A DNA stretch of 64,000 nucleotides from NCBI RefSeq assembly GCF_029227855.1, contig NZ_CP074357.1; one strand, given 5' to 3'. The position numbers were made by a program. Numbering within the stretch: position 1 is the stretch's first letter; each line of letters begins with the position of its first letter. This stretch comes from Escherichia coli. GTDB lineage: Bacteria; Pseudomonadota; Gammaproteobacteria; Enterobacterales; Enterobacteriaceae. This document shows, piece after piece, positions 38,401-47,400 of this stretch.

Positions 38401-41400
38401 GACGATAACGGTATGGATACCGTATGCTGTAAATCTCATACTATTTTCCAGAACCCAGTTGCGGTATTCGTCGAGTCCACCTTCGGAACCGGTAGCTCTG
38501 CGCCACATTTCAATTTGCTTGTGTGATGGGTCAAGTGTACTTGTCATTGAAGCCTCGTCTCAGCGATAACGCTTGAAATAGCCCGCTTTGGTCATCATGA
38601 AATTAGCCATCTGACTGGCGATTTGATTGTATCTTACTCATAGTGCCCTACCTATAGGTTAAAAAGGGGCATTTTCGCTTTATAGCGTGTTCAGCAGCAT
38701 CAATCCTCCCAAGAAAGGCTGGCTTATTAAGCCGGTCCATCATTTTCTGTATATCTCTCATCAATTTTTATATCCGCCCTGGAGTGCACCGTTCAAGCAC
38801 ACCGATTAGGCAGATAGTCACTAGTTAACTCTTTACTAGTGACTAAATTCCATTGATATACGTGACAACGTCACGTCATGAAAGCTTATAAATGCCTATT
38901 TTTCATACAATGGGATTTAATTAGGAGTAAATCCCATAGGCTTACATAAGGATGACAATTAAAAGCGTTAAATATCAACCAGATAGAATGATTACCCCCA
39001 ATTAATGGGCTCATCACATTATTTCACTGGCTGGGGTTATTGCTGGCATATCTGAAAGTGCTAATATGTTAGTCATTAGTAATTAGTAAAGCCTTTACTA
39101 AACGCGTTTCTACGTAAATTCTATAGGTTTTATAGTGTCCTACCTTTGCTCAAATCAAAATGTTCTGACATACCAAAATGGAGTGTAAAATGACTCAAAA
39201 CCAGGGTTCTGAGCCAGTACCGGCGAGCCGGACAGGGCAGCTCATCAGCGCCCGGGATATGGCCATGCAGAAATTCGAAGAAGGGATGCGGTTAATCTCG
39301 GAAGCGTCGGAACTGTGCGGTCTCTCTCTCTTCACCAGCAGAATTATGCAGCCCAACGCATTTGGTCTTCCGTCGTCACTGGATCGCACCATCGAGGAGG
39401 GGCGTAAGGAAATTGACCGTAAAACGTGGAAAAGGCTCTTTGAAGAAACAGGTATGGACCGGTACTGGAACCATAAGCAAAAAGAAGCCTTTAACGAATC
39501 CCTTCGTACGGATCCGCCCGTCGCTTCCCTGGAGATTGTTAAGGGAACATTACAGCATGCACTGGCTAACAGACGAGACACCCTTGCAGAAGGTTTCGTT
39601 GATGTTCTCAACAAGCTTGACCGAAGTTTCAAAAGCAATGCCAGGCAATATACAATGCCAAAAAAGCTTGTTCTTCGGGGGATTTTTCCTGGTGTGAACG
39701 TGCTGAGGTACAACGGTTTCTCGCAGGACAATCACTTTTGTTTACGCGACTTTGAGAATATTGTATGCATCTGTTCTGATACTCCAACACCTGCAACCGG
39801 CGGTGGGCTGAGTATGGTCGACAGGCTGACGGCCATGAGAAATACAGAATTCACAGGCGAGGTCAGTGATGAGAATGGCTGGCGGTGTCGCCTGTTTGAG
39901 AATGGAAACGTTCATATTTGCATCGACAGTATCTCGCTTCTGAATGCTCTGAACGATCTTATCAGCATATATTTTGCAAACCAGCTTCCGGCCGCAGGAA
40001 AAAAATGATGATTGAAAATGATAAAGAAAAAAGCCTGAACGATGCTACCCCGCCAGAGGTGCAGAATGACATCCGCAGCGAATCCACTGAAAAATCAAAG
40101 GAAATGGGTCGTTCAAGGTACTCATCTATCGCGATGATCGATTACTTCAATGCAATCGAACGTCTGTGCAAAGAGAAAGAAATTAACCCGGAAAATATCG
40201 ATCTGAGCTTCAAAGTTCACTGGCTCAGAAACGCTGTTGGCGGCTCGTTTGCAAGGTCACAGGAGATGTTCGCGGAGTACCAGAAGTATGTTAAAGAGGT
40301 TCCTGAAGAGGCCCGTTACCTGGATATACCCGATGAGGTAAAGGTTGCACTCGGCGATATTATCTCGTACATCACCTGGCACTACCGTAGAAGCTATACC
40401 GCAATACAGAATGATAGTGTTAAAAAAGCTGAAGCACGTAGCATGCAGCTGGAGGAGGAGGTAACGCAGCTGTTACAGCGGCTTGAGCAAAGCGCTACCG
40501 ATATGGATGAGCTGAAACTTGAGAATCAGGCACTACAGGGTCGATTAGAGATCCGGGACAGTACCGTCAAGGAGTTAGAAACAAGGCTGAATGTTGCCGA
40601 AGCAGAACTCGAAACCTGCCATCACCAGTTAGATAGCACACGGCATGAATTGAGCCTCGCACAGCAGTCAAATGACTCACTCTCCCAGCAACTGGCTGAA
40701 CGTAAAACAGAGATCGCTGGTCACCTTGAATATCAAAAAAAGCTGAACGAAGAGATCAACACGCAGCGTTCTGATAACGCCGGTCTTTCCAGACAATGCG
40801 ACCAGTTAAGTCAGACTGTGTCAGATACAAAGGCAGAGAGGGACAGGTTTGAACAGGAATTGATTGCTGCACAGAACCTTTGTACTGAGCTGAAAAGTGC
40901 ACTGTCCGGGAAAGAGGGTGACCTGGTGGCGGTGAATGCCGAGCTTACTGAACTCCATAAACTAAACGAGTCGCTGAGCGCCGACCTGAATAAAGTAACT
41001 TTGGTCAGCCAGGGCTATGAAGCGGAAGTGGCTGAACAAAGCAATGAACTCAAAACGCTCCAGGCCAAAGTAATGAAGCTGGAAGCTACCCTGGAGGCGG
41101 AGAAAACAATCTCAGAATCCCTAAAAGGCACCATTGATACATTAACTGGTGCAATGGCAGGGGGAGGTACTGGAAAGTCAAAACAGCCGCGTAGCAGAAA
41201 AACATCATGATAAATGAAGCCAGGTTGATACACTTCTCTGCATCCCCTGGCACATAAGAACTTCTGCGGACATTCAGCCCGTCCGCAGGAGTTTTCGTCC
41301 TTCAGTCAACAAATGCACTACCTTTTTTGAGTCTCCACTTTCCAGAGCAGAAAACACGTTACCGATTCTACCAACAGCTTGTATCTGAGTGATAACCCCA

Positions 41401-44400: not shown

Positions 44401-47400
44401 AGCTGTTAACAAAGTTTTGTGGATCAGAGATGGTGTTTTATCCACATCATTCAGGTCTGTCTCAAGATCATGAGTGTAACGTTTCATCCAAACTCTCTCA
44501 GGAATAATATCTTTGAGATAGATTAACACGCTTAATTTGGATTATTTTTTGGTTCAGGTTCTAAATTTATTGTGATTATTCTGCCTTTAAGTTGCAAAAA
44601 GATTGGTTTTAAGCCCGCCCATGAAATAATGACTTGTTAAAATACTGCCTGTAAATAGGCTTGTGGATACATGTCTGTACTCAACAAATCAAGGTGAAAT
44701 GATGTTTTTTTTAACAAAGTTACTTTTGCCCATCATGATTGTTGTATTCCCAGTGGCGTCCTGGGGGAACTCAACAACTTTTGAGGCAAAGGTGGTTAAG
44801 ATTGTTGACGGTGACACCATAACTGCGTTGGATGCTCAAAACACAACCATCAAAATACGGATGTATGGTATAGACGCTCCTGAATCTAAACAGGCTTTTG
44901 GCCAAAAAGCAAAACAGGCCTTAACCACAGCTATAGCAACTAAAATCGTTACCGTGATAGACCATGGTACGGATATCTATGGCCGTATGTTAGGTACCAT
45001 CTGGTTAGATGGATATGATATCAATGCCTCTATGGTGGACAGTGGATATGCGTGGGTTTATCGGTTCGAAGATAACGCCATTGTCCCTGGCTATATCAAA
45101 TATGAATCCGCAGCACAAAAGGAGGCAAAAGGGTTATGGGCAGACACCAACCCTGTCCCACCATGGCAGTGGAGACAGGCAAACGAAAAGCCCAGAAAGG
45201 TGAAAGAGAAGAAATAACCATGATGAAAGAGCCTCATCCGTTACTTCAGTTGGTACTAAACGATTCCGGTCGTCTAACCATGCCTGTTTATTATAGAGAT
45301 CAACAGTATTGCCCGACTTGCCTTACAAAGGTGTTGAAGAGTGAGGATGGAAGTTTGGCGCACCTCGGGGAAATAAATCAAAATACATGTAGACCTTCTA
45401 TTTCAGTAGTTGTGACAAAAGCAATTATTGAAATGTTATGTGACGGGGAAAAAATATATGTAAATCCAATACGACACCGAGGCCGGGTGCTGGCACCCTC
45501 AGTAATTTTTTCTCCCGACACTCACACTTTCAAACCGTTTATAAATACAGACTATCAGCCTGTGGGAGCAAACTGGAAAAGTGAAAAGGGATATAAACTC
45601 GGTCTGTTTTATCTCAAAGATCGAGCCAACTCTATCAATAAAGAGGAATTTGATTTCATTGCCGTTATAGACCCTGAGGCAATGCAGAAAGAATTTATTT
45701 CGGCCTGGTCTGAGGTTGATGAAAAAAATCCATTGGAAACGCTGAAGCAGATCTTACGATCTAAAAACAACTCTTCTTTATGGGTAAAATGGCCTGGCAA
45801 AATTGAGCATGCGCAAAAAGGAAATTACAACGAAAATTACTGGTTCGATTATCAATCTGATAATCAGGAAGTGAACTGTACGGTCTCTGTTGTAGGTATC
45901 GAAGGTAACAGTTCCGGTGAGACAATTTATAGATTGCAAACTTTGCTAAAGCGTAAGCTCAATGAATATCAACTGGTTCGGTCTTTAGGGACTATTATGC
46001 TTCTTGATAATACCGGGAATATGATTCCATCAAACCATCCTTATTTTGAAGTCATCTCAAAAGCATGTATAAATGGAGTGCGTGACTTTGTTCGTCAAAA
46101 CCCGTGGGTAGTCTGACGGTCAACTATAAAGCATAATATAATTAGTAATAACAAGGAACAGACATGAATGAAAACTCAGTAATCTTAATAAGTTTATTTT
46201 GGTTTTTTTTGGGATCGAGTGTTGTAGCTGGTTTTATGGATGCATCATTATATTGCTGGATTTTTGCAGCCATAAGCGCATTGTTTCTTCTTTCGGTGAT
46301 ACAAACACCAAAGGAGTTAACGGTATCTATTAGTCATATGACAAGCAAAACGCTGATCTCAAAGACAGATGATGGATACACATTTAGCATTTCACCTTAC
46401 GGAGACGGGTACCGCTTATCAGTCTCGCCTGAAAATCGTCACAATGGTACCCAAAGCTTTGACGGCTGGTTCCCACGTTTTTTTTCCGAACCACAGTATG
46501 CCAAATCATCTTTAACTAAATTTCTCGGTGAGTCCTTAGTATGGGAAGAAGATTCAAGTAATGCTCTATGAGATTACTTATTATAAATTTTTCTATTAAT
46601 CTCCATGGAGTGATATATGAATTTGGCCTATTTTTTATTTTTGTCTATAACTGTTATGCTTACGAGCTTTATTATTAAATCACTTGTCGTATTGGTAAAG
46701 TTCAAATTACTTCGTGATGAACGTCTCGAATATACCAGCAATAAAAATATTGATGAGATGTACGATTTAATGAATGCGAAGGAAGAAATCCTCATAAGGC
46801 ATCATAAGCAGATGTTGGCATTGCATCTTTCACTATTAATATTCGTTCTATTTATTGCTTACATTTACTAAAAATAATTTTATTCAACATTTCAACAAAG
46901 GGTTTTCAATGGAAAGCTTCGAAACTGAACAAATGATTCAATATGCTTTCTACATAAATATCGTAATAACGACTGGTTTGGCATGGTTTTGCTTGCGGTC
47001 AGGATTGCATTACAATTTTTTCAGAAAAGCAGAGAGTGCCAGAACAAAAGGGCTGAGTAGTACCTCTACTGAACACGGTCCAGCAATAGTGAGACTAAAG
47101 AAGCTACAAGCATTAGTAGATTTTATTAGTAACTGTGCTTTTCTAATCCTTTCAATTGGCACAGCTTATATTTTGTATGTTTGGAGCCACAGTTAACTCA
47201 TACGAGGTAACTTCGGCAGGTAACAACTTCTAATGCAGGACTTTAATAACTCTAAGGGATTCTACATGAAAAAAGACGATCTAATTACGCGTTGTAAATT
47301 ACTTAAAGGCGAACGCGATGAGTCTATCTTTACCATATTAATTGGGATAGTAGTAAAGCTGGGGCTGGTAGGCCTGGCATTCTATCTGTTGCTTGGTTCC

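Follow-up and report, generated by a model that had tools for sequence, protein, structure and literature searches.

Genes of the locus and their plasmid setting

We analyzed a 64,000-nucleotide stretch of Escherichia coli DNA (contig NZ_CP074357.1 of assembly GCF_029227855.1; "the window" in what follows), which carries a group of four co-oriented open reading frames (ORFs) on the minus strand at 41274-44529. They encode a Dcm-type DNA methylase, a small acidic protein (orf55), a protein of the DUF1173 family, and a small basic protein (orf67), and are separated by gaps of 60, 22, and 12 nt (Table 1). A preliminary description, made from the sequence alone, had given this layout, whose coordinates we confirm, and had proposed that the genes form an unconventional restriction-modification (R-M) or methylation-linked nuclease module, or else serve defense or anti-defense. 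It had also stated that no described function was known for the pairing of the methylase with DUF1173. Our literature search, which covered DUF1173, the cytosine methyltransferase or Dcm of IncHI and IncHI2 plasmids, and the dcm of R478, likewise found no functional study and nothing published on what the pairing does. The locus is a conserved four-gene IncHI operon.

Table 1. Features of the operon, its surroundings, and the repeated ORFs of the window
Feature	Position	Strand	Remarks
C5-methyltransferase ORF	44529-43060	-	489 aa from GTG
orf55, acidic	42999-42832	-	55 aa
DUF1173 (PF06666) protein	42809-41490	-	439 aa
Codons of putative zinc ligands C53, C55, H86, C90	42540-42653	-	Invariant in 34 of 34 aligned homologues
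C-terminal PD-(D/E)XK-like core, about residues 325-415	41565-41837	-	E335, K351, D365, D370, E380-V-F382-G
orf67, basic	41477-41274	-	67 aa
Terminator-like hairpin	41288-41264	-	9-bp stem, 6 G-C pairs, weak T-tail; overlaps the orf67 stop codon (consensus scan)
Sigma-70-like promoter match	44626-44655	-	9 of 12 matches; within the 214 nt that separate the divergent dcm and SNase genes; predicted only
Thermonuclease (SNase) gene	44663-45217	+	PF00565, E 4.6e-24; RefSeq start 44702; divergent from the operon
DUF4942 protein	39178-40008	+	Pfam; convergent with the operon
430-aa coiled-coil protein	39918-41210	+	Convergent with the operon
723-nt ORFs, six copies	2391-3113, 6764-7486, 24720-25442, 29295-30017, 32895-33617, 56953-57675	+	Near-identical
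723-nt ORF, seventh copy	58765-59487	-	Near-identical to the other six

The gene calls required few corrections. Shine-Dalgarno (SD) sequences precede orf55, DUF1173, and orf67 (GAGG, AGGAG, and GGAG, respectively). The 489-codon methylase ORF exists as described, but its start probably does not: the GTG has no SD sequence, whereas the ATG at 44487 is the RefSeq start, follows an SD-like GAGAG, and gives a product of 475 residues, which makes it the likelier initiation codon. The acidic ORF found where vsr would be expected had been described as absent from the ORF track; it is present in RefSeq as WP_000220758.1. Since both small ORFs have low dN/dS values (0.08-0.17) and keep their lengths among relatives, we judge them to be real genes. 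Promoter-like sites in the region occur at chance level (6 versus 5.5 +/- 2.5 in shuffled sequence) and terminator-like sites in modest excess (8 versus 3.7 +/- 2.1), so that the structure and boundaries of the operon are drawn from spacing and SD sites only, and the hairpin at its end is a weak indication. One promoter-like match of the extended -10 (TG) type, at 43014-43041 on the minus strand, falls inside the gap between dcm and orf55. It could drive orf55, DUF1173, and orf67 independently of dcm, which would explain why these genes survive when an insertion sequence (IS) splits dcm.

The methylase is a C5 cytosine methyltransferase of the Dcm subfamily, as had been recognized from its motifs and its target-recognition domain (TRD). 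It matches PF00145 (E 3.8e-75) and DNA_meth_N (PF18284), scores 845.7 bits against the NCBIfam Dcm subfamily model NF007772 (cut-off 710), and has "orphan methyltransferase" as its best PADLOC model (3.4e-206). Its alignment with E. coli K-12 Dcm is free of gaps over 438 residues, at 65% identity, and contains all ten conserved C5-methyltransferase motifs, including PCQ with the catalytic Cys, ENV, and GNSV, as well as a conserved TRD stretch. Given this identity and the conserved TRD, there are strong grounds to predict that the enzyme modifies the inner C of CCWGG. The window itself holds 161 CCWGG sites, against about 138 expected; this lack of avoidance fits protection through modification, not through loss of sites. 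In the K-12 chromosome vsr overlaps dcm. No vsr overlaps the 3' end of the methylase gene here, where the 60-nt gap is followed by orf55, which has no Vsr match in Pfam or NCBIfam.

The 3.26-kb segment matches 1,209 plasmid records, 1,134 of them at 99% identity or more, in Escherichia, Salmonella, Enterobacter, Klebsiella, and Citrobacter, and most of the carriers are predicted to be conjugative. In pSTM6-275 (IncHI2A, MOBH, MPF_F) it stands between the pco/sil metal-resistance cluster and a thermonuclease gene. The IncHI1 plasmid pMAK1 has the same block as IncHI2, in the order SNase gene with a 300-aa ORF; then, divergently, Dcm, orf55, DUF1173, and the small ORF; then, convergently, the coiled-coil protein and DUF4942. 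The block also occurs in more distant enterobacterial elements, with DUF1173 identities of 53-82%. This recurrence in IncHI2, IncHI1, and more distant elements identifies the operon as conserved backbone of IncHI1 and IncHI2 conjugative plasmids.

Fold and active site of the DUF1173 protein

The 439-residue protein matches PF06666 over residues 26-393 with 134.8 bits (cut-off 25), which bears out its earlier assignment to DUF1173. The Cys cluster noticed near its N terminus is of the zinc type, with the four putative ligands of Table 1. The AF2 model is confident (pLDDT 88.8, pTM 0.89). A Foldseek search of the full model against the PDB gave nothing at E <= 0.001; the C-terminal domain has the alpha-beta-beta-beta-alpha-beta core of the PD-(D/E)XK superfamily, and the TnsA/Vsr-type restriction-endonuclease-like fold read there in the preliminary description is confirmed at the level of the fold. 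The OB-like beta region must fall within residues 1-289. These results agree with a study of 2010 (PMC3045609), which placed the C terminus of DUF1173 in the PD-(D/E)XK fold with moderate confidence and noted the N-terminal CxC...H...C zinc motif, but found no conserved active-site signature in the family and regarded the relationship as structural, not functional.

Our alignments add detail on this last point. In the core clade (23 sequences, down to 34% identity), the residues E335, K351, D365, D370, and E380-V-F382-G are invariant. The acidic triad of the PD-(D/E)XK signature (E335/D365/E380) is thus kept, but its Lys is replaced, the canonical catalytic position being occupied by the invariant Phe382. 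Distant members of the family have neither D365 nor E380, while K351 and the zinc ligands stay invariant. Models of restriction endonuclease (REase) families in Pfam, NCBIfam, and PADLOC do not match the protein, which is hit by PF06666 and, weakly, by the PADLOC defense candidate PDC-S68 (residues 317-403, 41601-41861, on positions 1095-1181 of 1221; E 8.3e-5). The same type of nuclease-like domain may thus be fused to a large candidate defense protein elsewhere.

Is the protein still an enzyme? It could be a catalytically inactive DNA-binding or scaffold protein, in which case the operon would be mere backbone synteny and the methylase would act alone. The missing canonical Lys, the distant members that have lost D365 and E380 but keep K351 and the zinc ligands, and the non-catalytic RAP domains among the top structural neighbors all argue in this direction, as does the synteny of the entire block from SNase to DUF4942, which means that adjacency may lack functional meaning. 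Yet enzymes of the Vsr branch function without the canonical Lys, and the invariance of E335, D365, D370, and E380 down to 34% identity is hard to explain without metal binding or catalysis. Even with the structural rather than functional verdict of PMC3045609 on its side, we hold this explanation to be unlikely, although it is the most serious rival of the one that we favor below.

Linkage, natural knock-outs, and the role of the operon

The preliminary description proposed to judge its module by the linkage of DUF1173 to methylases in other genomes; we found this linkage in the IncH-like clade and nowhere else among the loci sampled. According to a tblastn table of all fetched DUF1173 loci, dcm and orf55 are present along with DUF1173 wherever its identity is 53% or more; the loci at 44% or less, which are from Klebsiella, Pseudomonas, Bordetella, Achromobacter, Erwinia, Ewingella, Morganella, Pectobacterium, and Actinomadura, have neither. 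No methyltransferase recurs in some 30 other DUF1173 loci that were annotated by Pfam or RefSeq or scanned with Pfam and PADLOC. Those with precomputed Pfam annotation have zero methyltransferases of any class inside 8 kb, and the RefSeq-annotated plasmids have none as a neighbor. Among 143 neighboring ORFs of 14 non-IncH loci, the Pfam scan revealed no recurrent methyltransferase and the PADLOC scan only one HsdM-like protein, of type I. In plasmids of Klebsiella, the SNase and DUF1173 genes directly adjoin each other in divergent orientation, with no dcm or orf55 in between. Hence, the dcm-orf55 pair was either inserted into an older SNase/DUF1173 pair in an ancestor of IncH or lost in the Klebsiella lineage. 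The SNase, which is of the periplasmic type, was considered as a functional partner of the methylase and rejected, because it pairs with DUF1173 even where dcm is missing.

These neighborhoods also bear on the idea that DUF1173, possibly with orf55, substitutes for Vsr and repairs the T:G mismatches left by deamination of Dcm-methylated cytosines. DUF1173 does lie downstream of dcm, where E. coli has vsr, and hhalign places its S-x-x-E helix and PDF strand on the region of the Vsr catalytic Asp51. However, the hhalign comparison of the DUF1173 profile with E. coli Vsr is not significant (probability 0.2%) and the His residues of Vsr are not conserved. DUF1173 predates its association with dcm and occurs overwhelmingly without a C5-methylase, and the SNase/DUF1173 pair exists without dcm. 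This makes the repair function the least probable of all the explanations considered, and a very remote one.

Outside the IncH-like clade, DUF1173 travels with a variety of genes of mobile elements. A homologue is present in 2,716 of 72,556 plasmid records (3.7%), and 72% of these 2,716 are predicted to be conjugative. In an F-like plasmid of Pantoea, it lies co-oriented and directly upstream of ArdA, SSB, DUF905, a ParB-like protein, PsiB, and PsiA, followed by SLT and TraM, a setting that is a classical F-type leading region. It is found near PsiA, H-NS, SNase, and a PLD-type nuclease in Klebsiella, beside a large ParB and a Prok_Ub (PRTRC) cluster in integrative and conjugative elements (ICEs) of Pseudomonas, and next to TraR/DksA, a VirB11-like ATPase, SLT, ParA, and an integrase in Massilia; other plasmids have it beside par genes, umuDC, or Hha. 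No gene is a neighbor of DUF1173 in all the loci compared, and the supplements of a study of leading regions (PMC11541004; Nature 2024) do not list DUF1173/PF06666 as one of the abundant families. A TnsA-like role in transposition was rejected, as no genes of the TnsB/TnsC type recur beside DUF1173.

Several further observations concern these loci. Genes for nucleases of the PLD family recur near SNase/DUF1173 in IncHI1, Klebsiella, and Pantoea plasmids. Some of the non-IncH loci (L025-L047) carry pAgo/SIR2, Septu PtuA, McrBC, or one type I methyltransferase within 6 kb, and Zn_ribbon_11 proteins recur as three ORFs near non-IncH DUF1173 genes; in L025-L047, neither this defense cargo nor Zn_ribbon_11 is a consistent partner. 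Many large plasmids of Klebsiella pneumoniae carry a DUF1173 gene of about 42% identity in two pieces, listed as "DUF1173 family protein (x2)" with 69% coverage (for example, NC_017541.1 112700-113586). These copies look like pseudogenes, which suggests that the gene is dispensable in those lineages.

The distribution of orf55 is of a different kind. Its product has a pI of 4.2, a dN/dS of 0.11-0.17, and a conserved C terminus (...YDAQxVLxWLGY), and matches phrog_25588 from residue 1 to 55 on profile positions 1-53 of 53 (E 1.8e-24). Searches with tblastn identified homologues in gp01 of Pectobacterium phage PhiM1 (L051, 785-943), the first gene after the terminal repeat, and in gp02 of Escherichia phage PGT2 (L060, 1699-1857). 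Both genes lie at the early (left) end of the genome, in two different genera of Autographiviridae (T7-like), and the depositors of PhiM1 had annotated gp01 as similar to SMR0164 of R478. Relatives without Dcm or DUF1173 were also found in a Yersinia plasmid, in metagenomic contigs where umuDC or other small ORFs are the neighbors, and in a Cereibacter plasmid beside genes for a MOBF relaxase and a coupling protein. A PDB sequence search yielded chance matches only, and a large-database search returned almost exclusively near-identical matches, owing to the limit of its word index. The early position in phages and the acidic charge suggest an early inhibitor directed at the host, and by this analogy the orf55 family is a candidate early anti-defense or host-takeover protein common to phages and conjugative plasmids.

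In Cereibacter, the orf55 homologue (L058, 5998-6171) closes an operon divergent from the relaxase and coupling-protein genes. This operon (neighbors at 3358-7907) also includes genes for DsbA and for a protein with DUF2726, and the gene after it is annotated as "restriction endonuclease"; this is another pairing of a small acidic protein with nuclease-fold genes near transfer genes.

The basic protein orf67 (pI 9.2, dN/dS 0.08-0.16) is present in IncHI1, Photorhabdus, and Huaxiibacter loci and absent at 61% DUF1173 identity or less; it is a lineage-specific small protein restricted to the closest IncH-like relatives. It is interrupted by an element of the IS21 family in pCFSAN061772_02.

Natural knock-outs of the methylase provide a further comparison. 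The gene is split by an element of the IS3 family in pEc61A and by IS100 in p28322-1, and is cut to a remnant of 145 residues in the Photorhabdus locus; orf55 and DUF1173 are intact in all three. Among near-identical PLSDB records, about 2% have a disrupted or truncated dcm, and about 2% a disrupted or truncated DUF1173 gene. This is not the asymmetry expected of a toxic endonuclease and its antidote. We take the knock-outs as supportive but not decisive, since the hosts may carry a chromosomal dcm.

Could the operon still be an unconventional R-M or methylation-gated defense system, in which DUF1173 would be a nuclease directed at DNA without Dcm methylation, self DNA would be spared thanks to the methylase, and orf55 or orf67 would have a regulatory part? 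What invites this idea is a co-oriented methylase and nuclease-fold protein with gaps of 12-60 nt, an arrangement kept from 53% to 100% identity, together with the invariant E335/D365/E380 in the endonuclease-like fold and the weak C-terminal match to PDC-S68. It has to be set against the roughly 30 loci where DUF1173 has no recurrent methylase, the invariant Phe at the position of the catalytic Lys, the lack of a conserved active site in the family as a whole (PMC3045609, and the distant members here), and the failure of every REase model of the three collections to match the protein. Furthermore, DUF1173 is intact in the plasmids and the Photorhabdus locus with a disrupted methylase, the putative R and M genes are disrupted at equal rates, and the usual hosts are already Dcm-methylated, which would make for poor discrimination. 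The locus is probably not an R-M system, as the comparative and family tests for type II R-M failed, and we consider the methylation-gated nuclease proposed in the preliminary description improbable. It is just as doubtful that in the IncH lineage DUF1173 was captured by Dcm and an acidic protein of the phage-early type into a three-part module of this kind; if this were true, DUF1173 would act on DNA without CCWGG methylation (incoming phages, rival plasmids) and be modulated by orf55. In a milder version, DUF1173 and orf55 may be two previously unrecognized anti-defense or establishment factors of conjugative elements.

The reading that we favor, and consider moderately probable, is that the operon combines an orphan anti-restriction Dcm methylase with independent, separable accessory genes of mobile elements, instead of forming an integrated R-M system. 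The parts are indeed found independently: orf55 stands by itself in other plasmids and in the early regions of phages, and DUF1173 occurs elsewhere without dcm. If, as its homology predicts, the methylase modifies CCWGG, it would be the plasmid's own shield against EcoRII-type restriction and EcoRII-type post-segregational killing, as the plasmid moves between dcm-minus and dcm-plus hosts. There is a precedent: once one orphan dcm had been deleted from the IncA/C plasmid pKAZ3, EcoRII restricted the plasmid about 2,700-fold more strongly if its donor was dcm-minus, and chromosomal Dcm likewise shielded all plasmids tested (PMC11602122). Every large plasmid in that study had at least one orphan methyltransferase, and methyltransferases are a recognized class of plasmid anti-defense (PMC11541004). 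Both orf55 and DUF1173 would be accessory proteins of the establishment or anti-defense type. The former, judging from its homologues among the first or second genes of T7-like phages, could be an early host-takeover or anti-defense inhibitor. The most probable role of the latter is to bind or process DNA while the plasmid is being established or maintained; binding would probably involve the zinc and OB-like part, and the degenerate Vsr/TnsA-like site, with its E-D-E triad and no catalytic lysine, may or may not cut DNA. Of the options in the preliminary description, anti-defense fits best.

Several points weigh against this reading. Over the whole range of 53% to 100% identity, dcm, orf55, and DUF1173 stay tightly spaced and co-oriented, and one locus (L013) has an overlap of 4 nt; functional coupling would be compatible with this. 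Because the acidic triad of DUF1173 is invariant, nuclease activity is possible. On IncHI2 plasmids, about 36 kb separate the operon from the mobI/mobH (oriT) region, and its transcription leads away from that region, so that in these plasmids the genes do not make up a textbook leading region. A dcm gene is generally present in the chromosomes of the usual hosts (E. coli, Salmonella, and Enterobacter), which makes it hard to see what a further copy on the plasmid would be selected for and compromises the natural knock-outs of the methylase as a test of toxicity. Finally, the CCWGG specificity and the anti-restriction benefit are projected from the similarity to Dcm (65% identity) and from the precedent of a plasmid gene that is not orthologous.

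The sequence is already annotated in more than 1,000 records; here it is read as an orphan plasmid Dcm with co-transcribed, uncharacterized accessory genes. IncHI2 and IncHI1 plasmids are major carriers of mcr-1, extended-spectrum beta-lactamase, and heavy-metal resistance genes in Salmonella, E. coli, and Enterobacter, and a self-encoded Dcm would help explain how IncHI plasmids cross restriction barriers. The more useful lead may be DUF1173, with its presence in plasmids and also in ICEs, and the orf55 family shared with the early genes of T7-like phages. Both are uncharacterized, under purifying selection, and located where establishment and anti-defense genes occur, and their functions would extend the catalogue of establishment functions of conjugative elements. 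Recognizing the locus as something other than R-M also prevents the spread of a mis-annotation.

Neighboring genes and comparison with known systems

The SNase gene, read from its RefSeq start (44702-45217), has a signal-peptide-like N terminus (MFFLTKLLLPIMIVVFPVASW). The DUF4942 and coiled-coil genes overlap slightly and are syntenic with the operon in every IncH-like locus. DUF4942 (YdiA-type, methyltransferase-associated) appears in the supplements of PMC11541004 as an abundant family of leading regions; the protein at this locus has no recognizable methyltransferase domain. Farther out, the window contains seven 723-nt ORFs that are mutually 99.6-100% identical, whose product we take to be the IS26 transposase. 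The related plasmid pSTM6-275 also has IS26 in its annotation. The seven IS26-type copies have heavily remodeled the window, and the resistance regions that flank the backbone segment are mosaics built by IS26, which agrees with a GC content that swings from 0.34 to 0.67 across the window.

Among known systems, type II R-M of the EcoRII/PspGI type resembles the operon in having a C5-methylase near a protein of restriction-endonuclease fold, co-oriented and closely spaced. It differs in the identity of that protein, which here is a DUF1173 member without the catalytic Lys, linked to a methylase in one clade and surviving the loss of the methylase. The EcoRII system has an EcoRII-type endonuclease, and the chromosomal dcm-vsr module a vsr that overlaps dcm; the IncH operon has neither. 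For the C-terminal domain of DUF1173, the closest known group is the Vsr/I-Bth0305I/TnsA branch of the PD-(D/E)XK superfamily. DUF1173 resembles leading-region genes (ardA, ssb, psiB, psiA, and orphan methyltransferases) in that it heads the ardA-ssb-parB-psiB-psiA series in Pantoea and lies near psiA and H-NS in Klebsiella, but the IncHI2 operon differs from them in its distance from the oriT/relaxase region, from which it points away. The orf55 homologues, small, strongly acidic, and encoded by the first or second gene at the left end, recall the class I (early) genes of T7-like phages, among them the one for the anti-restriction protein Ocr (gp0.3); this is an analogy of position and charge only, to which the PDB search added no link. 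The orphan dcm of pKAZ3 is likewise plasmid-borne without a recognizable cognate REase, and is compared here as a functional analogy only. The methylase itself stands closest to the E. coli Dcm/M.EcoRII family, with which it shares the NF007772 subfamily, the catalytic motifs, and the TRD, at the 65% identity to K-12 Dcm given above.

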